In this document: positions 26,816 to 51,436 of the stretch, piece after piece
How positions within the stretch are numbered: position 1 is the stretch's first letter
How the letters are laid out: each line of letters starts with the position of its first letter
Assembly: GCA_963824225.1 (NCBI GenBank)
Contig: CAWGOF010000003.1
Location: 3,040,847-3,104,846 of the forward strand
Length of the DNA: 64,000 nt
Direction: 5' to 3'
DNA from: an uncultured Acidobacteriota bacterium
GTDB taxonomy: Bacteria; Acidobacteriota; Polarisedimenticolia; Polarisedimenticolales; Polarisedimenticolaceae
Translations under genes and position numbers: made by a program
Notes under the pieces: generated by a model
What the model was told of the DNA's origin: nothing
Database searches by the model: none
The model's input: only the letters and a program-made list of their open reading frames with translations

Positions 26816-27097
26816 ATGTGGGAGGTGTACGAGCACCGGCGGATCGGCCGCCGTGTTCAGCGTGTCCCAGTCGAGATCGTCAAGCGGTACGAGAAATGGA
26901 AGGACATAGTCCGAATCTCCGGTCCGGCCGGACTTCGTTTGATCAAGGGCTTCCACGATGAGTCGCTTCGTGGCGAATGGAGCGGGCACCGTTCTTCACG
27001 GCTTGGACTCCAGTACCGGGTGATCTACCGGATCGTTGGCCAAGACGTTCTGGTTGAGGTGATCGACATTACGGCTCACGACTACCGGAGAAGGTGA
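26816..27097 (+). CDS. higB: HigB-like RelE/ParE-superfamily toxin
   Basis: 93 aa; ...KRYEKWKDIVRISGPAGLRLIKGFHDESLRGEWSGHRSSRLGLQYRVIYRIVGQDVLVEVIDITAHDY matches HigB/killer-protein family pattern. Confidence 0.6.
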   Translation: MWEVYEHRRIGRRVQRVPVEIVKRYEKWKDIVRISGPAGLRLIKGFHDESLRGEWSGHRSSRLGLQYRVIYRIVGQDVLVEVIDITAHDYRRR

Positions 27098-27100
27098 ACG

Positions 27101-27367
27101 ATGGCACCGAAGGCATATCGAAAGGCCCGGCGACATATTGATGTCTCGGTTGGCGAGTCGGTTCGAATCATGCGGGAACTCCAGGAGCTGAGCCAGAACG
27201 AGCTGTCTGAGCAGACGGGGATTCCGCAGTCGACGCTATCGGCTATCGAGAATGATCGGGTGAACCTTGGTGTCGAGCGTGCGAAGGTGCTGGCGCGAGC
27301 ATTGAGGTGCCATCCGGCAGTGCTGGTCTTTCCGGGTTGGGTGGTTGGCGATGAATCGGCGGCATAA
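27101..27367 (+). CDS. higA: HigA-like XRE-family HTH antitoxin
   Basis: 88 aa; HTH ...MRELQELSQNELSEQTGIPQSTLSAIENDRVNLGVERAKVLARAL; 3 bp after higB stop. Confidence 0.65.
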   Translation: MAPKAYRKARRHIDVSVGESVRIMRELQELSQNELSEQTGIPQSTLSAIENDRVNLGVERAKVLARALRCHPAVLVFPGWVVGDESAA

Positions 27368-36006: not shown

Positions 36007-38135
36007 GTGAACCATAGCGAAATCGTCAGCTTTCTCTGGGGCGTCGCGGACCTCATCCGCGACACCTTCAAGCGCGGCAAGTACCAGGACGTCATCCTGC
36101 CGCTCACCGTCCTGCGCCGCCTCGACTGCGTGCTCGCCGGCACCAAGGAGAAGGTGCTCGGCGAAGCAGGCCGAGCTGAGGGGCAAGAAGCTCGAGAACC
36201 TCGACCCGCAGCTGCGCAAGGCCTCCGGCTTCGCCTTCTACAACACCTCCCGCTACGACTTCGAGAAGCTCCTGGCCGACGCGCCGCACCTCGCCGCCAA
36301 CCTGCGCAACTACATCGCCGGGCTTCAGCCCCAACATGCGCGAGGTGCTGGAGAAGTTCGACTTCGACAACACCATCAGCAAGCTCGACGAGGCGGGGCT
36401 TCTCTTCCAGGTGCTCGAGCGCTTCAAGAACGTCGACCTGCACCCCGACAGGATCGACAACCCGACGATGGGCACGATCTTCGAGGAGCTGATCCGGAAG
36501 TTCAACGAAGCGCTGAACGAGAATCCCGGCGAGCACTTCACGCCGCGCGACGTCGTGCACCTGATGGTGGATCTGATGCTCGCCGGCGACGAGACGCGCG
36601 ATCCGCGCCAAGAGGGCGATCGTCGCACGGTCTACGACCCCTGCTGCGGCTCGGGCGGCATGCTGATGATCACCAAGGAGCACATCACGGTCGGCCTGCG
36701 GAAGAACGGCGAGCTGCTCCGGCCCGCGATCAACCCGGACGCCGAGATCCATCTGTTCGGCCAGGAGGTGAACCCCGAGACCTGGGCGGTCTCGAAGTCC
36801 GACCTGTTCATGAAGGACCCGACCGGCCGCGACGCCGACAACATCGCCTTCGGCAGCACGCTCTCCAACGACCGCCACGCCGGCCAGACCTTCGACTACC
36901 TGATCGCCAATCCGCCCTACGGCAAGGACTGGAAGCGCGACGAGGACGCCGTGCGCGCCGAGCACGAGCGCGGCGCCGCGGGCCGGTTCGGCCCGGGCCT
37001 GCCGCGGATCAGCGACGGCCAGCTCCTGTTCCTGCTGCACATGCTGGCCCACGCGAAGGACCCCGAAGGAAGGCGGCTCGCGCATCGCCATCATCATGAA
37101 CGGCTCGCCGCTCTTCACCGGCGACGCCGGCAGCGGCGAGAGCGAGATCCGCCGCTTCATCCTGGAGAACGACCTGCTCGAGGCGCTGATCGCGCTCCCC
37201 GAGCAGCTCTTCTACAACACCGGCATCGCGACCTACGTGTGGGTGGTGACGAACCGCAAGGCGCCGGCGCGCAAGGGCAAGGTGCAGCTCATCGACGCCA
37301 CCTCGTTCTGGGTGCCGATGCGCAAGAGCCTCGGCGACAAGCGCCGCGAGATCCCGCTCGAGCGCGCGCAGGACATCCTGAAGATCCTCGTCCGACTTCC
37401 AGGACGGCGAGACGCGGAAGGTGGCGAAGGACGGCAAGGAAGAGGACGTCGTCGTCAGCCGCATCTTCCCGACCACCCACTTCGGCTTCCGCAAGATCAC
37501 CGTCGAGCGCCCGCTCCGGCTCAACTTCCAGGCGAGCGCCGGAGCGCATCGCCCGCCTCGAGGAGGAGAAGGGCTTCCAGGCGCTGGCGCAGTCGAAGAA
37601 GAAGGGCGCCGCGGGCGCGAAGGAGCAGGCCGAAGGGCGCGCGCTGCAGGAGGCGATCCGCAAACTCGTGCGGGCGCTCCCCGGCACGCTCTTCAAGGAC
37701 CGCGACGAGTTCGAGCGCTTGCTCGACGCCGCCGCGAAGAAGGCCGGCATCAAGCTCCCGGCCGCCGGTCACGCAAGGCCATCCTCTCCGCGCTCTCCGA
37801 GCGCGACGAGACGGCCGCGATCTGCCGCGACAAGGACGGCGATCCCGAGCCCGACCCCGAGCTGCGCGACACCGAGAGCGTGCCGCTCGCCGAGAGCGTC
37901 GAGGCGTTCTTCGAGCGCGAGGTCAGGCCCCACGTCCCGGACGCCTGGATCGACACGTCCAGGCGCGACCCGAAGGACGGCCAGGTCGGCTTCGTCGGCT
38001 ACGAGATCAACTTCAACCGCTACTTCTACCGCTACACCCCGCCGCGCCCGCTCGAGGAGATCGAGGGCGAGATTCGGCGGCATCGAGCAGGACATCCTGC
38101 GGATGCTGGCCGAGGTGACGGGAGGGTCTGTCTGA
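36007..38135 (+). pseudogene. hsdM: Type I restriction-modification system methyltransferase subunit (HsdM), disrupted by at least 7 frameshifts
   Basis: GTG start; HsdM N-terminus NHSEIVSFLWGVADLIRDTFKRGKYQDVILPLTVLRRLD, catalytic NPPYG ([13 protein letters not shown]), HsdM C-terminal region; coding sense hops between frames near 36165, 36325, 37060, 37395, 37540, 37765, 38075. Confidence 0.7.
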
Positions 38136-38203
38136 GGTCTGAGTGGCAGGTGCCGGCACTTGGTCGGATCTGCCGACGTTCTCTGCCGAAAGGTTGGAAT
38201 CAA

Positions 38204-38233
38204 ATGTCGGCACTTGCGATTATGTGCCGACAT
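38204..38233. promoter_or_regulatory. operator-like inverted repeat ATGTCGGCAC-N10-GTGCCGACAT upstream of abiEi (plus related direct repeats at 38151-38180)
   Basis: perfect 10-bp arms, 16 bp upstream of abiEi ATG; AbiEi antitoxins are known autorepressors binding inverted repeats. Confidence 0.45.
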
Positions 38234-38249
38234 CGACTACCATTCCGCC

Positions 38250-38858
38250 ATGGACAAGCCGCGCCTGACCAGGGCACGTCTGAACGCCGCGGGGGTGGGA
38301 GCCTTCTTCCGGCCGCGTGACGTGCTGCCGCTCGGGGTGTCGTTCCGCCAGCTCCAGCGCCTCGTCGCCGAAGGCACGGTCGAGAAGCTCGGGGGCGGTG
38401 TGTATCGGCTCTCCGAAGTCGAGCCGAACGAGCTCGAGACCATAGCGATGGTGGCCTCGGCCGCACCCAACGCGATCGTCTGCCTGCTCACCGCGCTGCG
38501 CGTCCACGGGATTGGAACCCAGGCACCGCACCAGGTGTGGCTGGCGATCGACCGCAAGGCACGCATCCCGAGACGGCTCCCGGCCAAGGTCCGCATCGTC
38601 CGCTTCTCCGGCCAGATGCTGACCTACGGCGTCGTCACGCAGTCCATGCAGGGGGTCAGGGTCCGCCTCACCAATCCTGCCCGCACCGTCGTCGACTGCT
38701 TCCGCTACCGGAACAAGATCGGCCTCGACGTCGGCATGGAGGCGCTGCGCGACGCGGTGCGCTCGCGCAAGGCGATGGTCGGTGAGATCGACCGCGCGGC
38801 CGAGGTGTGTCGCATCCGCACGGTCATCGGACCCTACCTGGAGGCGCTGTCGGCATGA
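38250..38858 (+). CDS. abiEi: AbiEi-family antitoxin/transcriptional regulator
   Basis: ~200 aa; N-terminal winged-helix region (…[46 protein letters not shown]...) typical of AbiEi; stop overlaps abiEii ATG (ATGA). Confidence 0.55.
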
Positions 38859-39799
38859 GCGGGCGGGAGGTCGAAGGCCGGGCGGAATCAATCCGGCAAC
38901 GCCTACGGAACGAGCTTCGCGCCCGCGGCGAGGACGTGACGCTCGGGCTGCCGCGCTACGCGGTCGAGCGGTTCCTGTACCGGCTCGGCCGGTCGCGTCA
39001 CCGTGAGCGCTTCGTGCTGAAGGGAGCGACGCTCTTCGCGATCTGGGGTACGGCCTACCGGCCGACACGCGATGTCGACTTCACGGGCTACGGCAGCCCG
39101 GACGCGCAGGACGTGATCACTGCCTTCCGCGAGATCTGCAACACCCCGGACGACGTCGATCAGCTCGTGTTCGACACGGACTCGATCACGGCGGAGCCGA
39201 TCCGGGACGGCTCGGAGTACGACGGCCTTCGCATCCGGATCCGGGCGCGGCTGGGAGCATCCGACATCCCGATTCAAGCGGACGTCGGATTCGGCAATGC
39301 GATCGTTCCCGGCCCGGAAGAGCAGGAGTATCGAACGATTCTGGGCGATCCGCCGCCGCGAATCCTGGCCTACCCGCCCGAGTCCGTCGTGGCCGAGAAG
39401 CTGCACGCGATGGTGATGCTGGGCGAGCGGAACAGCCGCTACAAGGACTTCTACGACCTCTACGCGATGGCAGGCGCCTTCCATTTTGAGCGGCCCACGC
39501 TCGTGCAGGCGGTGAGGGCAACTTTCGAGCGCAGGAGCACACCGGTGGAGGCAGCGCTCCCCGCGGCGCTCGCGGCTCCCTTCTACGCCAAAGAAGCCCG
39601 TGCGGCGCAGTGGCGCGCGTACGTGGACCGCAACCACCTCACCGAAGCTCCCGCCGACTTCGGTCGCGTAGGCGATCGGCTCACCGCCTTCCTGCAACCC
39701 GTCTGGGCCGACGTCGCCTCCGGCACCGCGACGGCCGGCGACTGGCAAGGCGGGGGACCGTGGTCGCGGGGATCCTCGAGCGGGAGTCCGCCGCCATGA
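38855..39799 (+). CDS. abiEii: AbiEii-family nucleotidyltransferase toxin (DUF1814)
   Basis: 314 aa; ...RFVLKGATLFAIWGTAYRPTRDVDFTGYG... nucleotidyltransferase-fold G-S/D-xD region; pairing with AbiEi. Confidence 0.6.
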   Translation: MSGREVEGRAESIRQRLRNELRARGEDVTLGLPRYAVERFLYRLGRSRHRERFVLKGATLFAIWGTAYRPTRDVDFTGYGSPDAQDVITAFREICNTPDDVDQLVFDTDSITAEPIRDGSEYDGLRIRIRARLGASDIPIQADVGFGNAIVPGPEEQEYRTILGDPPPRILAYPPESVVAEKLHAMVMLGERNSRYKDFYDLYAMAGAFHFERPTLVQAVRATFERRSTPVEAALPAALAAPFYAKEARAAQWRAYVDRNHLTEAPADFGRVGDRLTAFLQPVWADVASGTATAGDWQGGGPWSRGSSSGSPPP

Positions 39800-41651
39800 C
39801 CATCCATCCCCGCCCACCCCGCGAGATCGACGGCAAGGGCCGCACCGTCCGCGAGCTGCTCGCCGGCCGAAAGTACTCGATCGACTACTACCAGCGCGAG
39901 TACAAGTGGCAGCAGAAGCAGGTCGCCGAGCTGATCGACGACCTCGCGGCCAAGTTCCTGGAGAGCCATGAGGACGGCAACGAGCGCAGCGCCGTCGCCG
40001 ACTACGGCCACTACTTCCTCGGCTCGATCATCATCAGCGACAAGGACGGCCAGAAGTTCATCATCGACGGCCAGCAGCGCCTCACCACGCTGACGCTGCT
40101 CCTGATCTTTCTCCACCACAAGCTCGGGGACGCCGAGCAGAAGGGGCAGATCGCCGATCTCATCTTCTCGCAGAAGTTCGGCAAGCGCTCGTTCAACCTC
40201 GACATCCCCGAGCGCACCGCCTGCATGGAGGCGCTCTACAAGGGCGAGGAGTTCGCCGACGCCGACGCGCCCGAGTCCATCGCCAACATCCTGGCCCGCT
40301 ACGCGGACCTCGAGGACCTGTTCCCCGAAGAGCTCGCCGGCGCCGGCGCTGCCGTACTTCGTGGACTGGCTGGTCGAGAACGTGCACCTGGTCGAGATCA
40401 CCGCCTACTCCGACGGCGACGCCTACACGATCTTCGAGACGATGAACGACCGCGGGCTCTCGCTCACCCCCGCGGACATGCTCAAGGGCTACCTGCTCGG
40501 CGAACATCACCGACGCCGACAAGCGCACCCGCGCGAGCCGCATCTGGAAGGAGCGGGTGCAGGCGCTGGCCGAGCTCGGCAAGGACGAGGACGCCGACGG
40601 CATCAAGTCGTGGCTGCGCAGCCAGTACGCCGAGAGCATCCGCGAGCGCAAGCGCGGCGCAGCGCCGCAGGACTTCGACCTGATCGGCACCGAGTTCCAC
40701 CGCTGGGTGCGCGACCACGACGGACCGCCTCGGTCTCACGGCCAGCGCCGAGTTCGCTCGCTTCATCGAGCGCGACTTCGCGTTCTACGGCCGCTGGTAC
40801 GAGCGCCTGCGGCGCGCGGCCGAGGCGCTCGCGCCCGGGCTCGAGTGCGTCCACTTCAACGCCCAGCACAACTTCACGCTCCAGTACCCGGTGCTGCTTG
40901 GCGCCGCTCCGCGTGGAGGACGACGAGGCCGGCGTGCTGCGCAAGCTCCGCGTCGTGGCCGCTTACCTCGACATCCTGATCCACCGCCGCATCTGGAACT
41001 GGCGCGCGATCGACTACTCGACGATGCAGTACGCGATGTTCCTCGTGATGCGCGACATCCGCGGCAAGGGCGTCGCCTGAGCTGGCCGCGCTGCTGCGCG
41101 AGCGCCTCGACGCCGAGACCGAGACCTTCGCGAGCAACGACCGCTTCCGGCTGCACGGCATGAACGGCCGCCAGATCCACCGGCTGCTGGCGCGCATGAC
41201 GGACTACGTGGAGACGCGCTCCGGCATGGCCTCGCGCTACCCCGAGTATGCCCAGCGCGGCCGGAAGGGCTACGAGATCGAGCACATCTGGGCCGACCAC
41301 CCCGAGCGGCACACCGACGAGTTCGCGCACCCGAGCGAGTTCCAGGAGTACCGGAACCGCATCGGCGGCCTGCTGCTCCTGCCGAAGAGCTTCAACGCCA
41401 GCTACGGCGATCTGCCCTACGCCGAGAAGCGCGAGCACTACGTCGGCCAGAACCTGCTCGCGCGGAGCCTCCACGAGCGCGCGTACGACCACAACCCGGG
41501 CTTCCGGCGCTTCATCGAGGAGAGCGGCCTGCCGTTCCGCGCGCACGCCGAGTTCAGGAAGGCCGATCTCGACGCGCGGCAGGTGCTCTACCAGCGACTG
41601 GCCGAGCGGATCTGGAGCCCGGAGCGGCTGGGACAGGAGGCGGCGTCGTGA
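39796..41651 (+). pseudogene. GmrSD-like (DUF262 + DUF1524) modification-dependent type IV restriction endonuclease, multiply frameshifted
   Basis: N-terminal DUF262 with FIIDGQQRLTTL motif; C-terminal DUF1524 HNH-like region GYEIEHIWADHPERH...; sense switches frames near 40345, 40500, 40725, 41085. Confidence 0.55.
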
Positions 41652-43015
41652 GCGGGGCGACGTACAGCGAGCGTGCGGGAGCGCTGCGGCGGTACAAGCC
41701 ATACCCGGCCTACAAGGACTCCGGCGTCGAGTGGCTGGGGGAGATTCCGGCGCATTGGGATCTGCGCCGGCTCAAGACCAGCGCTGCTGTTCAGCTCAGC
41801 AACGTCGACAAGAAGTCGGTTGAAGGCCAGGAAGCAGTGCGGCTCTGCAACTACACCGACGTCTACTACCACGAGCGCATCTCAGCAAACCTGGACTTCA
41901 TGGCAGCCACGGCGACATCGGACCAAGTGCGCCGCTTTGCACTACGCAAGGGCGATGTGCTCATCACCAAGGACTCGGAGTCTTGGACCGACATCGCGGT
42001 GCCCACGGTCGTAGCGGAAGATCTGCCCGGAGTGTTGTGCGGCTATCACCTCGCCCACATCAGACCCACTCACGTTTGCCACGGACCCTTTCTCGCGCGG
42101 GCCTTCAGCGCGATTGGCCCTCGGGATCAGTTTCAAGTCGCGGCCAACGGCATCACTCGTTTCGGGCTTGGCGGCGATGCGATTGCAACCGGGCTGTTCG
42201 CAATGCCCCCCGAGCCCGAGCAACGCGCCATCGCCGCCTTCCTCGACCGGGAGACGGCGCGGATCGATGCGCTGGTGGCGAAGAAGGAGCGGCTGATCGA
42301 GTTGCTCCAGGAGCAGCGCACCGCCCTCATCACCCGCGCCGTCACCAAGGGCCTCGACGCGAATGCCCCGATCTCAGGCACGGGCTCTACCGTCTTTCCT
42401 CCGGTCCCGTCGGGGTGGGAGTTGCGGAAGCTGCGGCGTCTCCTCACGCGGGTGAAACGACCCGTCAAAGTTGACCCTGACTCTGAGTACCGGGAGATCG
42501 GCATCCGCTCGTGGGGCAAAGGCATCTTTCACAAGGAACCCGTGCGCGGGGTTCTGCTCGAGGACAAGAGTGTGTTCGGTATCGAGCCGGGCGACTTCGT
42601 GCTCAACATCGTCTTCGCATGGGAAGGCGCAGTCGCCGTTGCTGCCGAACCGGAGCGTGGAATGGTCGGCTCGCACCGTTTTCCCACGTTTCGCACCTCC
42701 GAGGAAGTTGATCTGGACTACCTCTTGATGGTTTTTCAGACCAAGCATGGCCGTGCGTTGATGGAGGTGAACTCGCCAGGTGCTGCGGGTCGCAACAAGA
42801 CGATCAGGGTAGACCAGTTTCTCGATGAGCTGGTGCCGCTGCCTCCGGTCGCGGAACAGAAGGAGATTGTCCGACGGTTTAGGAGCGATGAAGTGCGGCT
42901 CGGCGGACTCGTCGGGCGGCTTTGCGAGGCCATCGACCGCCTCAAGGAGCTGCGCACTGCCCTCATTTCCGCCGCGGTGACGGGCAAGATCGACGTGCGG
43001 GAGGTCGAGGCATGA
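41648..43015 (+). CDS. hsdS: Type I R-M specificity subunit (HsdS), two target-recognition domains
   Basis: 455 aa; GTG start overlapping upstream stop; two TRD halves separated by conserved coiled-coil repeats (…LQEQRTALITRAVTKGLD… and …LKELRTALISAAVTGKIDVRE). Confidence 0.75.
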   Translation: MSGATYSERAGALRRYKPYPAYKDSGVEWLGEIPAHWDLRRLKTSAAVQLSNVDKKSVEGQEAVRLCNYTDVYYHERISANLDFMAATATSDQVRRFALRKGDVLITKDSESWTDIAVPTVVAEDLPGVLCGYHLAHIRPTHVCHGPFLARAFSAIGPRDQFQVAANGITRFGLGGDAIATGLFAMPPEPEQRAIAAFLDRETARIDALVAKKERLIELLQEQRTALITRAVTKGLDANAPISGTGSTVFPPVPSGWELRKLRRLLTRVKRPVKVDPDSEYREIGIRSWGKGIFHKEPVRGVLLEDKSVFGIEPGDFVLNIVFAWEGAVAVAAEPERGMVGSHRFPTFRTSEEVDLDYLLMVFQTKHGRALMEVNSPGAAGRNKTIRVDQFLDELVPLPPVAEQKEIVRRFRSDEVRLGGLVGRLCEAIDRLKELRTALISAAVTGKIDVREVEA

Positions 43016-44700
43016 GGGTCACCAAGGCGCGCATCCGGAACTTCCGTGGCCTGAAGGACGTCGGGTTGGAACTCGGTTCGACCACGGTGCTGATCGGCGA
43101 GAACAACTCCGGCAAGACGTCGGTGCTGGACGCCCTCCGGCTCTGCCTCAGGGAGTTGGGACCCCGGCGCCGGGTGGTCTTCGACAGCTTCGACTTCCAT
43201 CTGAAGGACGGAGCGGCGGAGCCGCAGTCGGCAGACCCTATCGAGATCGAGATCAGGTTCTCGGAGACTTCCAAGGGAGAATGGAACGACGCGCTGGTTG
43301 GTCGCCTGAATCGCCAGAAGATCCTGCAGGTCGACGGCGACGATCTGAACCACGTCATGCTCCGCGTCACCTGCACCTACGACCCGACGAACCGAGACTT
43401 TGCTCAGGACTGGGCCTTCCTGAACCTCGAGGGGAAGCCGTTGACCGCAGTGTCCGAAACGGCACTGGGAACCCTGCAACGCGAGGTCGCCTTCTACTAC
43501 CTGAGCGCGCTCCGCGATGCCGCGTGGCACTTCGATGCCAAGGGGCCCTTCTGGAGGCCGTTCCTCAAAGACAGCCAGCTCACGGAGGCCAGGAAGGCTG
43601 AGGTCGTGGAGAAGCTCCGGGAGATCAATGAGCTGGTCGTCGCCTCCCACACCAGCTTCGAGCACGCCATAGAACGGCTCGGCCGAGTGCGGGACGTGGT
43701 GCCGATGGCGGGCGGAGACATGGTGTCCATCGAGGCCGTACCGGGGCGGATGTTCGACATGCTGGCCAAGGCGCAGGTGCACTTGGGCGCGTCGACCGGA
43801 GCGAGAATCCCGATCGGGAGACACGGCGAGGGAACCCAGAGCCTTTCCGTCCTGATGCTCTTCTCCGCGTTTCTGAGTACGAAGCCGGAGGGCAGCCCCG
43901 TGGTGGCGCTCGAGGAGCCGGAAGCGCACTTGCATCCATCGGCGGTCCGGGCCCTCTGGGACATCCTCCGCTTGATCGACGGCCAGAAGTTGATCTCGAC
44001 CCACAGCGGCGATCTACTCTCTGAGGTGGATGTTCTCAATGTGCGTCGTCTCGCCATGGCGGAGGACGGCATTCGAGCCTATCGCGTCCCCTCCACGCTC
44101 CTGTCTGCGGAGGAGACGCGAAAGTTCAACTACCACATCCGCAGATCACGGGGCGAGCTCCTCTTCGCTCGCTGCTGGCTCCTAGTCGAGGGGGAGACCG
44201 AAGCCTGGGTTTATCCTGCGGCCGCTCGTGCTCTTGGGATGAAGCTCCACCGTGATGGCGTGCGGATCGTTGAGTACAGCCAGTCCGACGTAGGACTCCT
44301 GGCCAAGGTCGCGAACTCGCTGGGTCTCCTGTGGTTCTGTGTCATCGACGATGACTCGGGTAGAAGCGAGTACGAACGGAACGTGCAGGACAACCTCGCG
44401 GGGGCATCTGAGAGCGACCGACTCCGCTTTCCGTACAGGAACATAGAAACGCACCTGCTCGAGAGTGGCTACGACGCGATCTATGACCCGTACATGCCGG
44501 AGCAGAAGCGCGCCCTACTGACGAAGCACCCGGGCGATGACGGCTACTGGGCCGACTTCGCAGACCAGCTACCGAAACGACGCAAGACCCGAGCAGCGGC
44601 CGATGTAGCCGCTGCGATGGAGGCGAAGGGCAAGGAGGGGGTGACGGACGAGCTCCGCGGCATCCTCGAGAAGGTCGTGGCTCTGGCGCGAGGTGAGTGA
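43012..44700 (+). CDS. gajA: OLD-family ATPase/Toprim endonuclease, GajA-like
   Basis: 562 aa from ATG overlapping hsdS stop; Walker A GENNSGKTS, ABC-type ATPase region, C-terminal Toprim LLVEGETEAWVYP; partner UvrD-like helicase immediately downstream = Gabija-type architecture. Confidence 0.65.
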   Translation: MRVTKARIRNFRGLKDVGLELGSTTVLIGENNSGKTSVLDALRLCLRELGPRRRVVFDSFDFHLKDGAAEPQSADPIEIEIRFSETSKGEWNDALVGRLNRQKILQVDGDDLNHVMLRVTCTYDPTNRDFAQDWAFLNLEGKPLTAVSETALGTLQREVAFYYLSALRDAAWHFDAKGPFWRPFLKDSQLTEARKAEVVEKLREINELVVASHTSFEHAIERLGRVRDVVPMAGGDMVSIEAVPGRMFDMLAKAQVHLGASTGARIPIGRHGEGTQSLSVLMLFSAFLSTKPEGSPVVALEEPEAHLHPSAVRALWDILRLIDGQKLISTHSGDLLSEVDVLNVRRLAMAEDGIRAYRVPSTLLSAEETRKFNYHIRRSRGELLFARCWLLVEGETEAWVYPAAARALGMKLHRDGVRIVEYSQSDVGLLAKVANSLGLLWFCVIDDDSGRSEYERNVQDNLAGASESDRLRFPYRNIETHLLESGYDAIYDPYMPEQKRALLTKHPGDDGYWADFADQLPKRRKTRAAADVAAAMEAKGKEGVTDELRGILEKVVALARGE

Positions 44701-46584
44701 TGACTTTGAACCTGGACTCATTGAACGAGAACCAGCGCAAGGCCGTCGAATGGCAGGATGGTCCCCTGCTCGTCCTCGCTGGTCCGGGGTCTGGAAAGAC
44801 TCTGGTCTTGACTCTGCGCGTGGCGCGTCTACTGGAGGAGCACGAGGACGCCGCGGTGCTCGCCCTCGCTTTCACGAGCAAGGCGGCCGCGGAGATGCGC
44901 GAGCGAGTCGATCGCCTTCTGGGGCAACACGGCGACCGTGCGCAGCTCTGCACCTTCCATGCGTTCGCTACCGACGTGCTGCGGCAGCATGGTAGCCATG
45001 TGGGGATTCAGCCCGACTTCTCTGCTGATCCAGGAGGAGGATCGGGTGGCCTTGGTGCAAGAGATCGTCGAGGATCTGACGGAGAATGGCCACGTCTTCC
45101 CGACCGATCACCGGAACACCCTCGCGCTCGTGGATCGCCTGTTCGCCTCCTCCTACGACGGTGCTCGAGAGGCTTCTTCCCTCGTGCACACTCCTGCGTG
45201 GGTACCGGACTTGTTTGCGACTTACTGCCAGCGGCTTGTCGCCGCGAACCGGTTGGATTTCGGTGCCCTGCTCCACTTCGCCCGCAAGCTCCTGTCAGAG
45301 CAAGGCGGTGTGACTCGCGTGTTGCGGGCGGGCTGGAGCTACGTGTGCGTCGACGAGTTCCAGGACACGAACAAGGCGCAGTACGACCTGCTGAGACTGC
45401 TCGTGCCACCAAGTGCACCGAATCTCTTCGTGGTCGCGGACGATGATCAGATCATCTACCAGTGGAACGGCGCGAGCCCCGAGCGTTTGCAAGCCCTGCA
45501 GCAGGATCACGGGATGGAAGTCGTTCAGCTCCCGGAGAACTTCCGGTGTCCGAAGGAGATCATCGATCTGGCGAACCGACTCATCGCTCACAACCGACTC
45601 CGGGCCGCGGACAAGAAGCCGCTGACCACCAGTCGGCGTGCCGCGTCGAGCGATGACCTCGTCCGGGTGCGTGCGTACTGCACACCCGAGGAGGAAGCGG
45701 CGGGCATCGCCGCCGACATTCGCGATCGCGGGCTGGCGCCTGTAGACGTGGCCGTTCTCGCCCGGACGACGAAGCTGCTCAATGGAGCGGCCGAGGCGCT
45801 AGGAGCCGCAGGTCTCGACGCTCATGTTACCCAGCGCAAGGCGGAGTTCGAGACTCCTTTGGTGCGCGTGGTCTTCCACGCGCTTCGGCTCGCGAATTCC
45901 CGGCACGACCGCGATGTGCTGCGACGTCTGTGCGTCGCTTGGGGCGCCCTCACGGACCACGATCTGGAACTCGGAGACGTGATCGCCGGGGCCACACTTG
46001 CCGGGGGGGACTTCCTGCGCGCGTGGGCTGATGCCGCGGCGGCTGGTGCGGAGGGAAGTCATGCGGATCTACTCGGCCGCCTTCGGTCATCGCTGGTGGA
46101 TCGCCTCGACTTCCCGGGCGTTGTCGATTGGTTTCTGTCCGATGGCGCGACGACGCCGGCGGACGTCGACGACCCGGCGCTGGCGACCGAGCTCGAGACC
46201 TGGCAAGAGCTGCACGGCGAGCTGGTGCGAGAGCACGGCGAGGATGCACTGACCTTGAACGTCTACCTGCAGCACATGGACCTGGCACCGAAGGGTCCCC
46301 GGCCGGGCCCGAACGCCGTCCGTTGCATGACGATGCATGGAGCGAAGGGGCTCGAGTTCCGGCACGTGTACCTGATCGGAATGGCGCAGGAGGTCTTCCC
46401 CTCCTTTCAGGCGCTTCGCAAAGGGGCGAACAGCCGGGAAGTCGAAGAAGAGCGCAGGAACTGCTTCGTCGCGATCACACGGGTTCAGGAAACGCTGACG
46501 TTGACATATGCGCGTCAGTACTACGGCTACCGCAAGAATCGCTCGCAGTTCCTCGAGGAGCTGGGGCTCTCGGAGGGCTCGTGA
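44700..46584 (+). pseudogene. gajB: UvrD/PcrA-like superfamily-1 helicase, GajB-like, with one frameshift near 45025
   Basis: LVLAGPGSGKT Walker A, VCVDEFQDTN (Walker B/DEAD-like), ...; frame A ends ...GIQPDFS, frame B continues LLIQEEDRVALVQEIVE; start overlaps gajA stop (TGATG). Confidence 0.55.
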
Positions 46585-46637
46585 TTCTTCATCCGGGTTA
46601 CCGCTCCAGATGCCCTTTCTCGACCGAGACACCGCCA

Positions 46638-46741
46638 TTGTCGCCAAGGCCTGCGAGGCCATCGAGCGCCTCAAGGAACTCCGCACCGCCCTCATCTCCG
46701 CCGCGGTGACGGGCAAGATCGACGTGCGGGAGGAGGTCGCA
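46638..46741 (+). repeat. duplicated 3' end of hsdS (~90% identical to 42918-43015) forming direct repeats around the gajAB insertion
   Basis: encodes ...AKACEAIERLKELRTALISAAVTGKIDVREEVA* versus hsdS end ...CEAIDRLKELRTALISAAVTGKIDVREVEA*; stop overlaps hsdR ATG exactly as at the hsdS-gajA junction. Confidence 0.8.
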
Positions 46742-49700
46742 TGAGCCCCGAGATCTCCGAGCGCTCCTTCGAGGAGGCGATCGAGTGCGCGCTGCTCCAG
46801 CACGGCCCCGACGCCTGCGCCGAGCGACGCGACGGCTGTCCGCGAGACGCCGCCGCCGTACGGCGACACGCCGCCGGGCGGCTATCGCAAGCGCAAGCCC
46901 GAGGACTACGACCGCACGCTCTGCCTGCTGCCGCGCGACGTGGTGGACTTCGTCCTCGCCACGCAGCCCAAGGAGTGGAAGAAGCTCGAGCAGCACCACG
47001 GCGCGGCGGTCCAGCGAGCAGTTCCTGAAGCGCCTCGCCGCCGAGATCGAGCGGCGCGGCGCGCTCGACGTGCTGCGCAACGGCATCAAGGACTCCGGCT
47101 GCAAGTTCCGGCTCGCCTACTTCCGCCCCGCGAGCGGGCTCAACGAGGAGACGCGGCGGCTGCACGCGGCGAACCTCTTCGCCGTGGTGCGCCAGCTCCG
47201 CTACAGCACGAAGAACGAGAAGAGCCTCGACCTGGTGCTGTTCCTGAACGGCATCCCGATCTTCACCGCCGAGCTCAAGAACCCGCTCAACGGCCAGGAC
47301 GTCGAGGACGCGATCCGCCAGTACAAGACCGACCGCGACCCGCGCGAGCCGCTGCTCGCCTACGGCCGCTGCCTCGCGCACTTCGCGGTGGACCCGGACC
47401 TGGTCTACGTCACCACGCAGCTCGCCGGGCCGAGGACGCGCTTCCTGCCCTTCAACCAGGGCAAGTTCGGCGGCGCCGGCAACCCGCCCGTGCCGCCCAC
47501 GCGCAAGCGGCTACGCGACCGCCTACCTCTGGGAGGAGACCTGGGCGCGCGACAGCGTGCTCGACCTCGTGCGCCAGTTCATCCACGAGGTCGAGGAGGA
47601 GGACGACAAGGGGCGCAAGACCGGCAAGCGCTTCCTGATCTTCCCGCGCTACCAGCAGCTCGACTGCGTGCGCAGGCTCGTGACCGACGCGCGCGCGAGC
47701 GGGCGCGGGGCAGCGCTACCTGATCCAGCACTCGGCCGGCAGCGGCAAGAGCTTCACCATCGCCTGGCTCGCCCACCAGCTCTCGACGCTCCACGACGCG
47801 AGCGACCGGCGCGTCTTCGACTCGATCGTCGTCATCACCGACCGGCGCGTGCTCGACCGCCAGCTCCAGACGACGATGCGCCAGTTCGAGCAGACGCTCG
47901 GCGTGGTGGAGAACATCGACACCACCTCGCGCCAGCTCAAGGAGGCGCTCGAGTCGGGCAAGACGATCATCGTCACCACGCTGCAGAAGTTCCCGGTGAT
48001 CGCGAAGGAGATCGGCGAGCTGCCGGGCAAGCGCTTCGCCGTGATCGTGGACGAGGCGCACTCGTCGCAGTCGGGCGAGAGCACGAAGAGCCTCGAAGGC
48101 GGTGCTCGCGTCGGGGTCGCTCGAGGAGGCCGAAGCCGAGGAGAGACGGAGGCAGGACGCCGGAGGAGGAGCTCGAGAGCTACGCTCCTGGCCGAGATGG
48201 AGAAGCGCGGGCACGCTCCCGAACCTCTCGACGTTCGCCTTCACCGCCACGCCGAAGCCGAAGACGCTGGAGCTGTTCGGCACGAAGCGCGCCGACGGGA
48301 AGTTCGCGCCCTTCCACCTCTACAGCATGCGCCAGGCGATCGAGGAGGGGTTCATCCTCGACGTGCTGGCGAACTACACGACCTACAAGGCCTACTGGCG
48401 GCTGCTCAAGAAGGTCGAGGACGACCCGCGCTACGACAAGAAGAAGGCCGAGTACCTGCTCAAGTCGTTCGTCGAGCTGCACCCGCACGCGATCGGCGAG
48501 AAGGTGCGGATCATGCGTCGAGCACTTCGCCGCGCAGGTGCAGGGCGAGATCGGCGGCAAGGCCAAGGCGATGATCGTCACGCGCTCGCGCCTGCACGCG
48601 GTGCGCTACAAGCTGGCGGTGGACGAGTACCTCGCCGAGCGCGGCTATCCGTTCAAGGCGCTGGTGGCGTTCTCCGGCACGGTCCAGGACGGCGGGCAGT
48701 CCTACACCGAGTCCGAGCATGAACGGCTTCCCGGAGGCGCAGACCGCCAAGACCTTCGAGCGGCCCGAGTACCGGTTCCTGATCGTCGCCAACAAGTTCC
48801 AGACCGGCTTCGACCAGCCGCTGCTGCACACGATGTACGTGGACAAGAAGCTCGGCGGCGTGAACGCGGTGCAGACGCTCTCGCGGCTCAACCGCACGCT
48901 ACCCCGGAGAAGAAGGGCACGATGGTGCTCGACTTCGCCAACGAGGCCGACGAGATCAAGGCCGCCTTCGAGCCCTACTACGAGACGACGCTGCTCTCCG
49001 AGGCGACCGACCCGAACCTGCTCTACGAGATCCAGACCCGCCTCGCCGCCTTCCCGGTCTACACCGAGGCCGACGTGGACGCCTTCGCCAAGGTCTACTT
49101 CGACCCCAAGGCGACGCAGGACCGGCTCTACGCCGTGCTCGCGCCCGTGGTCGAGCGCTTCCAGGCAGCTCTCGCGCCGAGGAGCAGCACGACTTCCGCG
49201 GCCAGCTCACCGACTACGTGCGGCTCTACGCCTTCCTCGCCCAGGTGCTGACCTTCGCCGACGCCGACCTCGAGAAGCTCTACGTCTTCGCGCGGCACCT
49301 GCGGCGGCTGCTGCCCGCCGACCGCGCCGAGCTGCCGCGCGAGGTGCAGCAGAACATCGACATGGAGTCGTACCGGATCCAGCAGACCGGCAGCGGCAAG
49401 ATCGCGCTGGAGCGCAGGCCCGGCGTGCTCGAACCCGTGAGCACCAAGCAGCGGCCACGGCGTCGACGCCGGAGGAGCTGGAGACGCTCTCGCGCATCAT
49501 CGCCGAGCTGAACGAGCGCTTCGGACTCAACCTCGGCCCCGAGCACCGCGTGACGCTCGGCCAGATGATGGAGAAGCTCGACGACGACGCGGCGCTCGAC
49601 GCGGCGGCGCGGGTCAACACGCGCGAGAACGTGCGGCTCACCTTCGACCAGAAGGTCGAGCACGTGATCCAGGAGATCGTCGACTCGAACTTCGAGCTCT

Positions 49701-50336
49701 ACAAGCGCATCACCGACGACCGCGCCTTCGGCGAGGCGATCAAGAACTTCCTGTTCGACCAGTACCTGCGCGCTCACCGCAACGCCGAGGAGCTGATCAA
49801 GCGCGGCGAGTCGAAGACGCTGGAGTTCAAGTCCACCCTGCGCTGGAGCCTCAAGGAGGACCGGCAGGACGACAAGGGCGTGACGCACGCCGTCCTGAAG
49901 ACGATCGCCGCGTTCCTGAACACCGAGGGCGGCGATCTCCTGATCGGCGTGGCGGACGACGGCGCGATCGTCGGCATCGAGCACGACCAGCTCGAGAACG
50001 ACGACAAGTTCATGCGCCACCTCGCCCAGGTCGTGCGCAACGGTCTCGGCGACCGTGCCGGTACCTGCATCGATCCGAAGACCCAGATCGTGCAGGGCAA
50101 GACGGTCTGCGTCGTGAGCTGCCAGCGGAGCCCTGAGCCGGTGTTCCTGAAGTGGAAGGGGATGGAAGACGCGCCGGACGGCGACTTCTTCGTCAGGAGC
50201 GGCCCCGGGACCGTGAAGCTCCCTCCCGAGAGCGCGCGTCGAGTACATTCGAACGCGGTTCGCCGGGTTCCTAGTCGAAGAGAAACCAGACGCACCATCA
50301 AGGGGAGCGACAACGGGTCCCGGCGCGGACACCGCA
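46741..50336 (+). pseudogene. hsdR: Type I restriction enzyme R subunit (HsdR), multiply frameshifted, with in-frame C-terminal AlbA_2/Schlafen-like (divergent AAA_4) domain
   Basis: HsdR N-terminal nuclease region, SF2 helicase motifs (QHSAGSGKSFT, DEAHSSQ, ...), C-terminal ...[20 protein letters not shown]...; at least 8 frame switches between 46990 and 49460; 49790-50235 encodes [13 protein letters not shown]...[18 protein letters not shown] AlbA_2-like domain. Confidence 0.65.
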
Positions 50337-51436
50337 TGAGCTACTTCATGGATTTGTTTTCGCCCGAAACATATGAGGCGTTTGCCAAGTCAGACAGGAC
50401 CATTTCGGGGTTTCGCCCCCGGCAGCGAAACATCGCCCAACGCATCAGGCCGGGGGACAAACTCGTCTGCTATATGACTCGGCTGTCGCGCTGGATCGGC
50501 ATTCTCGAGGTGGAGAATGGGCCTTTCAACGACGCGACGCCGATCTTCTATCCGGAGGCAGATCCTTTTACGGTCCGGTTTCGCGTTAGAGCGAAGGTCT
50601 GGCTGCCGTTGGAGAAGACGGTGCCAATCCACGCCTCAACGGTCTGGGGCAGTCTGTCCTTCACTAGCAAGCTTCCCCACTCCTCTACTGCTTGGACTGG
50701 AAAGGTCCGAGGCAGCCTGGTGGCTCTATCGGACGCCGACGGCGAATTCCTAGAGTCGCTGCTGGCCCGGCAAGCTACGGCTGGTCAGGAATACGCCCTG
50801 GATTCAGATGAGCAGAAGAAGCTCCGGGCAACGAAGATCAGGCGTCTCGAGAAGGACGTCACGGTTACCGTTCCAGAAGACGCCGAGCCCGCCGCACCGC
50901 CTGTAGTCGTCGGTGAAGTGCGAGAGTCCATTCGCATCCAGGCGCTTCTCGCCGAAGTCGGTAGCCGAATGGGGCTACAGATTTGGATTCCTCGATCTGA
51001 CCGCGCCGCCGTGGAAACTGAATGGCGGAGAGACCACCCGCCAATCCTCGACCGCCTACCCCTCAACTACGATGACACGACCCTCAGGACTATCGAGCAG
51101 ATCGATGTGCTGTGGCTAAAAGGCCGCTCCATCAAGCGGGCCTTCGAGGTTGAGCATACGACGTCCGTGTACTCGGGAATTTTGCGGATGGCCGACCTGC
51201 TTGCGCTCCAGCCAAACATGGATATCCGGCTCCATATCGTCGCGCCGCCCGCTAGGCGCGAGAAAGTCTTCCAGGAGATCCTGCGGCCAGTCTTCTCTCT
51301 CCTAGATCGGGGCCCTCTCTCCGAAAGCTGCACCTTCGTGTCCTATGAGAGCGTTCGTGAGCTCGCCGATCAGCAGCATTTGGAACACCTATCGGATACA
51401 GTCCTCGATGAATACGAGGAGCAAGCCGGGGATTAG
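50337..51436 (+). CDS. PUA-like (EVE/ASCH-type) domain fused to putative PD-(D/E)xK-like nuclease domain; candidate modification-dependent restriction enzyme
   Basis: no stop separates it from hsdR frame, but GC drops to ~58% from 50337 and codon usage changes; N-terminal [18 protein letters not shown]...[25 protein letters not shown]-like pattern; C-terminal ...[19 protein letters not shown]... nuclease-like motif. Confidence 0.4.

Follow-up and report, generated by a model that had tools for sequence, protein, structure and literature searches.

Gene, composition and separation from hsdR

We analysed a 64,000-nucleotide stretch of DNA (the window) from an uncultured Acidobacteriota bacterium (contig CAWGOF010000003.1 of assembly GCA_963824225.1). 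The window contains a composite defence island whose last gene on the 3' side, directly behind the type I restriction gene hsdR, encodes a 366-aa protein. It is nearly certain that this protein, the target nuclease, joins an EVE reader domain to a PD-(D/E)XK nuclease domain. The gene, its parts and the adjoining hsdR are as follows.

50336–51436, plus strand: complete coding sequence (CDS) of the EVE–NmeDI_C nuclease (366 aa plus TAG), from the open reading frame (ORF) and from alignment over the full length with standalone homologues (more than 5000, about 366 aa) that have the same N-terminus
50336–50830, plus strand: EVE/UPF0310 PUA-like domain, residues 1–165, putative modified-base reader
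50831–50893, plus strand: disordered Pro/acidic linker, residues 166–186 (predicted local distance difference test score, pLDDT, below 50; gap-rich and variable in length in the family alignment A1)
50894–51433, plus strand: NmeDI_C-type PD-(D/E)XK endonuclease domain, residues 187–366
51104–51106, plus strand: codon of D257 (in IDVLW), the predicted catalytic Asp of the "PD" element at the start of strand 2 (present in 50/50 sequences; position from the model)
51146–51154, plus strand: codons of E271-V-E273 (in AFEVEH), the predicted (D/E)xK equivalent on strand 3 with Glu replacing Lys (each Glu 98% conserved)
46741–50339, plus strand: type I hsdR with a C-terminal Schlafen/AlbA_2 domain, in about 12 frame segments in the assembly (three-frame translation, Pfam SLFN_AlbA_2 and intact homologues)
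50239, plus strand: inserted T relative to intact hsdR homologues, which creates an apparent 623-aa fusion ORF (nucleotide alignment)

An earlier sequence-only reading had placed the gene at 50337–51436. The ORF is real, the product is 366 aa long, and the peptide patterns quoted from it are present in the translation, but the start was off by one base. Reading from 50337 runs into stop codons; the start codon is the ATG at 50336–50338, and the TAG stop is at 51434–51436.

The composition of the gene is foreign to its surroundings. Its GC content of 58.7% is the minimum among all 1101-bp windows of the 64 kb (mean 68.3%, standard deviation 3.4%). The same reading had described a drop from about 70% to about 58% exactly at the ATG. 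The low value holds, but GC content is already about 64–66% in the 700 bp directly 5' of the ATG, and hsdR homology stops at about 50312, 24 nt before it; the break is thus near the ATG, not exactly there. GC at third codon positions is 0.70, compared with 0.78–0.84 in intact neighbours, and A- or T-ending codons account for 30.3% of the gene, well above the 9.1% (binomial p 2e-30) of seven housekeeping genes that are intact in the window. A shift towards ttt, tat, aca and cta had also been noticed, and all four are raised, together with ATT (codons per 1000 in target and housekeeping genes: TTT 13.7 and 1.5, TAT 10.9 and 3.0, ACA 5.5 and 1.5, CTA 19.1 and 2.4, ATT 16.4 and 0.9). AAA and GAA are likewise more frequent than in the housekeeping genes of the window. 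A search for insertion scars around the gene found short repeats at chance level only.

In this assembly, no stop separates the hsdR-derived frame from the target ATG, and the database entry for the locus (P0001) is a fused 623-aa product with AlbA_2 and NmeDI_C domains. The merger through a missing stop had been pointed out before; it is borne out, and we traced its cause to the one-base insertion at 50239. Across this point an intact HsdR homologue reads ...PPESAREYIRTRF... Without the extra T, hsdR ends at the TGA at 50337–50339, its true stop, which overlaps the target ATG as ATGA. The two genes are probably co-transcribed.

With the stitched hsdR segments as query, a search returned over 100 intact HsdR proteins (about 1185 aa, 88–92% identity), each with a C-terminal Schlafen/AlbA_2 domain. 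Nucleotide alignment with two homologous genes (91% identity) showed 15 one-base insertions (46820, 47015, 47508, 47699, 48095, 48147, 48181, 48214, 48513, 48715, 49167, 49176, 49452, 49465 and 50239), one single-base deletion (48904) and no longer indels. Every relative of the target nuclease is a standalone protein with a length of about 366 aa; the start Met is shared, and the N-terminus reads M-x-Y-x-L/M-D-L-F. The apparent fusion arises because the single extra T puts the hsdR tail in the frame of the target. As the relatives are standalone and the extra T explains the fusion, the target is a gene of its own, independent of hsdR, and the public 623-aa "fusion" record is an artefact of the insertion that should be split.

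The two domains of the product

Profiles, conservation and the structural model were based on a 50-sequence family alignment (A1, 32–78% identity). Pfam EVE (PF01878) matched the single target sequence below threshold (E 1.3e-3; 19.2 bits, cutoff 23), whereas 28/50 members of A1 match it (best 3.6e-8). The Pfam check proposed for the N-terminus by the sequence-only reading therefore succeeds at the family level and fails for the single sequence. NCBIfam PRK00809 (UPF0310) matches the target at 9e-7. None of the 50 members matches YTH, ASCH or any other family in the same search, so that the EVE part of the suggested "EVE/ASCH" assignment stands and the ASCH part is not supported. The A1 profile matched the solved UPF0310 proteins PH1033 (6e-14) and MJECL36 (1.4e-12) over residues 1–143; a PDB sequence search with the single protein returned weak EVE matches only and no nuclease match.

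The AlphaFold2 model built from A1 has a mean pLDDT of 88 and consists of two well-defined domains joined by the disordered linker. The N-domain is predicted to adopt the PUA-like pseudo-barrel. After PH1033, its top fold matches are YTH domains that bind N6-methyladenine (m6A) in RNA, and the fold is equally close to YTH, as readers of N6-methyladenine, and to characterised EVE domains. Residues D41, Y46, R52/W53, D76 and W120 are conserved and are candidates for a base pocket. These results confirm, by sequence profiles and fold, that the N-terminus is an EVE/UPF0310 PUA-like domain.

Pfam PF27126 (NmeDI_C) is precomputed for the database entry of the locus and for all 120 listed homologues. 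The PADLOC model REase_II matched residues 196–328 (E 1.2e-13), against positions 176–315 of its 351. A sequence search for a solved nuclease with the A1 profile found none. By fold, the C-domain resembles the cores of the restriction enzymes BspD6I, NgoMIV and FokI among solved structures, and the elements of its modelled secondary structure are arranged alpha-beta-beta-beta-alpha-beta, as in PD-(D/E)XK nucleases; a search of a viral fold library gave nothing meaningful. In A1, D257 and F270 are invariant and E271 and E273 are each conserved at 98%. R284 and D287, on the helix that follows strand 3 in the model, are invariant as well. Profile and fold together confirm that the C-terminus is a PD-(D/E)XK nuclease of NmeDI_C type. 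The nuclease-like D...EVE core proposed from the letters is thus upheld, with its predicted catalytic motif read as a D...ExE variant.

Family, gene neighbourhoods and the local defence island

The target belongs to a large family. Among 8000 scored candidates, more than 5000 proteins had E <= 1e-3, and the 120 best homologues are all 67–78% identical to the target. An exhaustive search of 50%-identity representatives gave 2502 clusters at E <= 1e-3 and 362 at <= 1e-30. Carriers number at least 597 of 185,579 species genomes (one genome per species), and the neighbourhood analyses cover the best 80 of these carrier loci. The 80 carriers fall in about 17 phyla at 55–71% identity. They include Myxococcota/"delta", Gemmatimonadota, Acidobacteriota, Nitrospirota, Planctomycetota, Verrucomicrobiota, Bacillota, Cyanobacteriota, Chloroflexota, Beta- and Gammaproteobacteria, Bacteroidota and others, plus one Hadesarchaeon. 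Such identity across phyla together with the patchy spread indicates horizontal transfer. The recent horizontal acquisition suggested earlier for the gene of the window is accordingly supported by its GC minimum, its shifted codon usage and this distribution. Nucleotide similarity between homologous loci ends at the CDS ends, so no mobile-element boundaries could be defined.

We then compared the surroundings of the gene. In an all-against-all ORF comparison within 4 kb, no neighbour family occurred in more than 6 of the 80 loci, and the commonest were generic (ABC transporter in 6 loci, SDR dehydrogenase, nucleotidyltransferase). The 139 directly adjacent genes fall into 125 Pfam families, none seen more than 3 times, and contain one N6_Mtase and no C5 DNA methyltransferase. 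Six annotated contexts all differ: one is beside a type III-like restriction-modification (RM) system, several have toxin-antitoxin pairs or a predicted pPIWI-associated nuclease close by, and others are surrounded by metabolic genes. The family gene is therefore solitary, with neither a conserved partner nor a cognate methyltransferase in these loci. ORFs that combine PUA and nuclease domains seldom adjoin methyltransferases (PMC6765204).

The NmeDI_C domain was also found behind other N-termini. These are Mrr_N plus EVE (P0249), a clearer EVE domain (P0150) and, in proteins of 430–477 aa, unrecognised N-terminal domains. Domain shuffling of this kind is typical of modification-dependent restriction enzymes (PMC6765204, PMC12191111). 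Two solitary plasmid genes from Streptomyces mirabilis and Sphingomonas sp. (L088:3185-4492 and L089:3215-4498) encode proteins of 427–435 aa that NCBI labels "type II restriction endonuclease". The part that they have in common with the target is NmeDI_C, at 35–43% identity to residues 201–344, and their N-terminus of about 270 aa has no Pfam or NCBIfam match. Genes of this type occur on 103 plasmids and may represent another sensor-nuclease combination.

In the window, the order from 5' to 3' is hsdM, AbiEi, AbiEii, DUF262, hsdS, GajA, GajB, hsdR-AlbA_2 and the target, followed by an extracytoplasmic function (ECF) sigma factor. Upstream of hsdR, the rest of the island comprises the following features.

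36336–46584, plus strand: rest of the composite defence island, whole extent
36336–38135, plus strand: hsdM, frameshifted (Pfam, frame plot)
38160–38858, plus strand: AbiEi (Pfam, PADLOC)
38807–39799, plus strand: AbiEii (Pfam, PADLOC)
39610–41650, plus strand: DUF262/GmrSD-like gene, frameshifted (Pfam, frame plot)
41648–43015, plus strand: hsdS (Pfam)
42922–44700, plus strand: Gabija GajA, intact, overlapping the start of GajB (PADLOC 2.7e-198)
44697–46584, plus strand: Gabija GajB, with one frameshift (PADLOC 3e-169)

The cassette hsdM-AbiEi-AbiEii-[X]-hsdS-hsdR recurs elsewhere, with about 90% nucleotide identity in hsdM and hsdR. Both homologous loci that we inspected (L090, L091) lack the target nuclease, which marks it as an accessory gene added at the 3' end of the island. 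Protein identity of the HsdR-Schlafen/AlbA_2 type I cassette with embedded AbiEi/AbiEii is 88–92% across its occurrences, which are in metagenome-assembled genomes labelled Planctomycetes, Eisenbacteria, Burkholderiales, Vicinamibacterales, Nevskiales and others. Its AbiE genes are much less alike, with nucleotide matches of 67% or none at all. Two slots of the cassette vary: the one between AbiEii and hsdS holds DUF3644 in L090 and DUF262 here, and the one between hsdS and hsdR holds Gabija here. About 95 bp of the hsdS 3' end are duplicated on either side of GajA/GajB (42924–43016 and 46643–46741), a 78-aa ORF at 46508–46744 ends in the hsdS C-terminal peptide, and in other cassettes the same hsdS 3' end forms the hsdS/hsdR junction. 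The duplication looks like the footprint of the Gabija pair inserting between hsdS and hsdR.

The frameshifts in the island do not fall at random: they affect hsdM, hsdR, the DUF262 gene and, once, GajB, and AbiEi/AbiEii, GajA, the target and the housekeeping genes across the window are intact. Almost all are one-base insertions between unlike bases. Homopolymer errors are not supported as the cause in hsdR, where no run reaches 5 bases and the insertions again fall between unlike bases. Errors in the consensus of a long-read metagenome assembly, caused by cross-recruited reads, seem a more likely source of the frameshifts than natural decay. Two features suggest this: the insertion bias, and the nucleotide identity of about 90% between copies in unrelated organisms and hsdM and hsdR, the two affected genes that were compared. 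In hsdM (36337–38181 in this comparison) there are 8 gap openings relative to intact homologues. The DUF262/GmrSD_N gene (PADLOC HEC-06, with an SspE-like N-terminus) switches frame about 5 times, with segments starting at 39712, 40307, 40488, 40705, 40871 and 41055, and the GajB frameshift near 44950 gives ORFs at 44697–45446 and 44938–46584.

Elsewhere in the window, the second-lowest GC content (about 60%) was seen at 26816–27367 in a small gene pair, judged by eye to be a RelE/HigB-type toxin-like gene (26816–27097, 93 aa) and an XRE-HTH antitoxin-like gene (27101–27367, 88 aa). Rfam and tRNA scans of the window gave nothing relevant. ARAGORN reported a "tRNA-???" with a four-base anticodon inside hsdS (41721–41809), where Rfam is empty; this is probably a false positive.

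Function, alternatives and known relatives

We consider it probable that the target nuclease is a modification-dependent DNA endonuclease that acts in defence, in the manner of type IV enzymes. A predicted modified-base reader is joined to a nuclease, and no cognate methyltransferase accompanies the gene at the 80 loci, as suits the type IV-like candidate put forward by the sequence-only reading. Near the target, the window has a single DNA methyltransferase, the type I hsdM, which belongs to a separate cassette found elsewhere without the target gene. The gene is in a defence island with type I RM, AbiE, DUF262 and Gabija genes, and its nuclease domain is modular, standing behind Mrr_N plus EVE and other N-terminal domains. 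The EVE domain of VcaM4I flips 5-methylcytosine (5mC) and 5-hydroxymethylcytosine (5hmC) (PMC7897488). Characterised EVE readers recognise these two bases, and the profile matches found here are to EVE. By analogy with VcaM4I and other PUA-nuclease fusions, we infer that the activity depends on modification.

The proposed mechanism has the following steps. The EVE domain would flip a modified base from the DNA duplex into a hydrophobic pocket. Most likely, this base would be a modified cytosine (5mC, 5hmC or a hypermodified derivative), and N6-methyladenine may also be considered. Capture of the base would tether or license the nuclease domain, with D257, E271 and E273 acting in catalysis with Mg2+. 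This domain would probably work as a dimer or tetramer, like NmeDI, and cut both strands some distance from the modified site. Host DNA would be spared as the modification is absent there, and therefore no methyltransferase would be needed. The enzyme would thereby add cover against phages and plasmids whose DNA modification defeats conventional restriction.

Several observations weigh against this interpretation. The predicted catalytic motif is D...ExE and not D...ExK, the canonical Lys being Glu. BamHI is a precedent for this variant, and in the model the invariant R284 might stand in for the missing lysine. The nearest structural relatives of the EVE domain (PH1033, YTH) are RNA-associated or uncharacterised, and, for the ligand, the profiles point to EVE and the fold equally to YTH and to characterised EVE domains. 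Conservation in the family is higher than is usual for a defence gene, and in other genomes the gene has mainly metabolic or housekeeping neighbours, with defence genes in the minority. Phage records contained no homologue, and plasmid records matched the C-domain alone. A search around the target gene found no promoter or terminator on the plus strand. We found no experimental work on this EVE-NmeDI_C family in the literature.

A narrower form of the proposal carries a low but appreciable probability. The family may read a base for which few or no dedicated restriction enzymes exist, such as N6-methyladenine in DNA or a phage hypermodified base, and perhaps cut at a fixed distance. N6-methyladenine is a candidate because, in structure, YTH and characterised EVE domains are equally close to the reader, and fixed-distance cutting because the nuclease domain is of NmeDI type. 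If so, the family would be a new specificity class and a potential mapping enzyme, and its thousands of conserved copies in soil bacteria would point to a common, unrecognised DNA modification in environmental phages.

The structural closeness to YTH also bears on the substrate. PUA, EVE and YTH domains bind RNA in most cases, the YTH domains that rank after PH1033 bind m6A in RNA, JGI labels many family members "predicted RNA-binding protein", and RNA is the predicted target of some type IV-like systems (PMC11090510). An EVE/YTH-like domain that reads modified tRNA, rRNA or phage transcripts could make the protein an RNA-directed nuclease, that is, a toxin or abortive-infection effector. We regard this as improbable, because NmeDI, a proven DNA restriction enzyme, has a cleavage domain homologous to the catalytic domain of the target (PF27126), and among solved structures the latter resembles DNA restriction-enzyme cores. 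Relatives also bear Mrr_N, named for the type IV restriction enzyme Mrr.

Similarly little weight is given to a housekeeping or repair nuclease for damaged or aberrant bases in the cell's own DNA. It would account for the 55–78% identity across phyla, the largely metabolic neighbours elsewhere and the NucS-type repair nucleases among the weaker fold matches. However, the distribution, with at least 597 carriers among 185,579 species genomes, is patchy, and the identity across phyla indicates transfer, as does the foreign composition of the gene. No conserved repair-gene neighbourhood was seen in the 80 loci, whereas the gene is in a defence island here and adjoins toxin-antitoxin or RM genes at several other loci.

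A conventional type II or IIS enzyme, which would cut an unmodified site while an unlinked methyltransferase protects the host, is very unlikely. The best PADLOC match is REase_II, the plasmid relatives of the C-domain are annotated as type II, and NmeDI itself is type II (PMC2095814). However, the NmeDI-type model was matched in its C-terminal half only, the N-terminus is an EVE reader instead of a sequence-recognition domain, and 1/139 adjacent genes is a DNA methyltransferase, whereas the NmeDI gene overlaps its own. A solitary type II enzyme would also be lethal upon transfer. Full-length similarity and an adjacent C5 methyltransferase, which mark NmeDI-type type II RM systems, are both lacking, and the target was therefore not filed as type II.

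The missing in-frame stop and the 623-aa AlbA_2 plus NmeDI_C annotation would suit a gene that is only a C-terminal extension of HsdR or an inactive remnant, but this is scarcely credible. A single extra T accounts for the open frame. In intact homologues, HsdR (about 1185 aa) stops about 24 nt short of the ATG and has no such extension. Every relative is standalone from the same Met, and all conserved residues are intact. The END nuclease family (PMC12191111) was rejected as an assignment; its members combine a PLD nuclease with an inactive EndoIII.

If the reading as a modification-dependent endonuclease is true, the target is one copy of a very large and unusually conserved family of solitary nucleases of this kind. 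Few EVE-type enzymes have a known specificity, and identifying the base read by the target would add to them; it would also show which DNA modifications are common in phages of soil bacteria. The enzyme might in addition serve as a new reagent with which DNA modifications are mapped, a use already made of the MspJI and PvuRts1I families. The size and conservation of the family and the question of its specificity make it a reasonable target for enzyme discovery. Locally, the island is a case of a type I RM cassette gaining defence modules, with AbiE, DUF262 and Gabija inside and the nuclease at the 3' end.

The kind of protein is already known. EVE-PD(D/E)XK fusions are listed among predicted type IV enzymes by Bell, Wolf & Koonin 2020 (BMC Biol 18:159; PMC7641849), Pfam has NmeDI_C, and a specialist would expect such fusions. 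The target has the same core architecture and predicted role, and fits this class. Bell et al. named the class in general terms and without experiment, and did not describe the NmeDI_C family, its size, its conservation or its solitary context. They found EVE domains in defence systems to be more diverse in sequence, whereas the family described here is highly conserved.

Among characterised EVE enzymes, VcaM4I, TspA15I and CmeDI are modification-dependent EVE-HNH fusions (PMC6765204, PMC7897488), whereas the nuclease of the target is PD-(D/E)XK. The A1 profile had no detectable sequence similarity to VcaM4I-type enzymes, and the VcaM4I pocket residues P24, W82 and Y130 could not be mapped onto the target. 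YenY4I, an EVE-DUF3427-DUF3883 PD-(D/E)XK protein that prefers 5mC/5hmC DNA, was the only PUA-PD-(D/E)XK fusion tested in the screen of Lutz et al. (PMC6765204). It has three domains in about 600 aa, with a DUF3883 nuclease and a DUF3427 sensor, whereas the target has two domains in 366 aa and an NmeDI_C nuclease. YenY4I is also rare (six close homologues), in contrast to the thousands of members of the target family.

R.NmeDI of Neisseria meningitidis is a type II tetramer that recognises (12/7)RCCGGY(7/12) and cuts on both sides of its site (PMC2095814). Its C-terminal cleavage domain is homologous to that of the target (PF27126; model positions 176–315 of 351), and this likeness suggests cleavage away from the recognised site by an oligomer. 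R.NmeDI has its own sequence-recognition N-terminus and an overlapping C5 methyltransferase gene (nmeDIR overlaps nmeDIM), whereas the target has an EVE domain and no methyltransferase.

The MspJI family (MspJI, LpnPI, AspBHI and SgeI) joins an SRA-like reader of the PUA superfamily to a C-terminal PD-(D/E)XK-type domain. They form tetramers, and the cut lies a fixed distance away from the modified cytosine. Our searches, none of which was aimed at MspJI, revealed no relationship to them in sequence or profile. The reader subfamily and the nuclease family differ. The MspJI family is the nearest functional analogue of the target. By analogy, the target nuclease would work most like enzymes of the MspJI and VcaM4I types.

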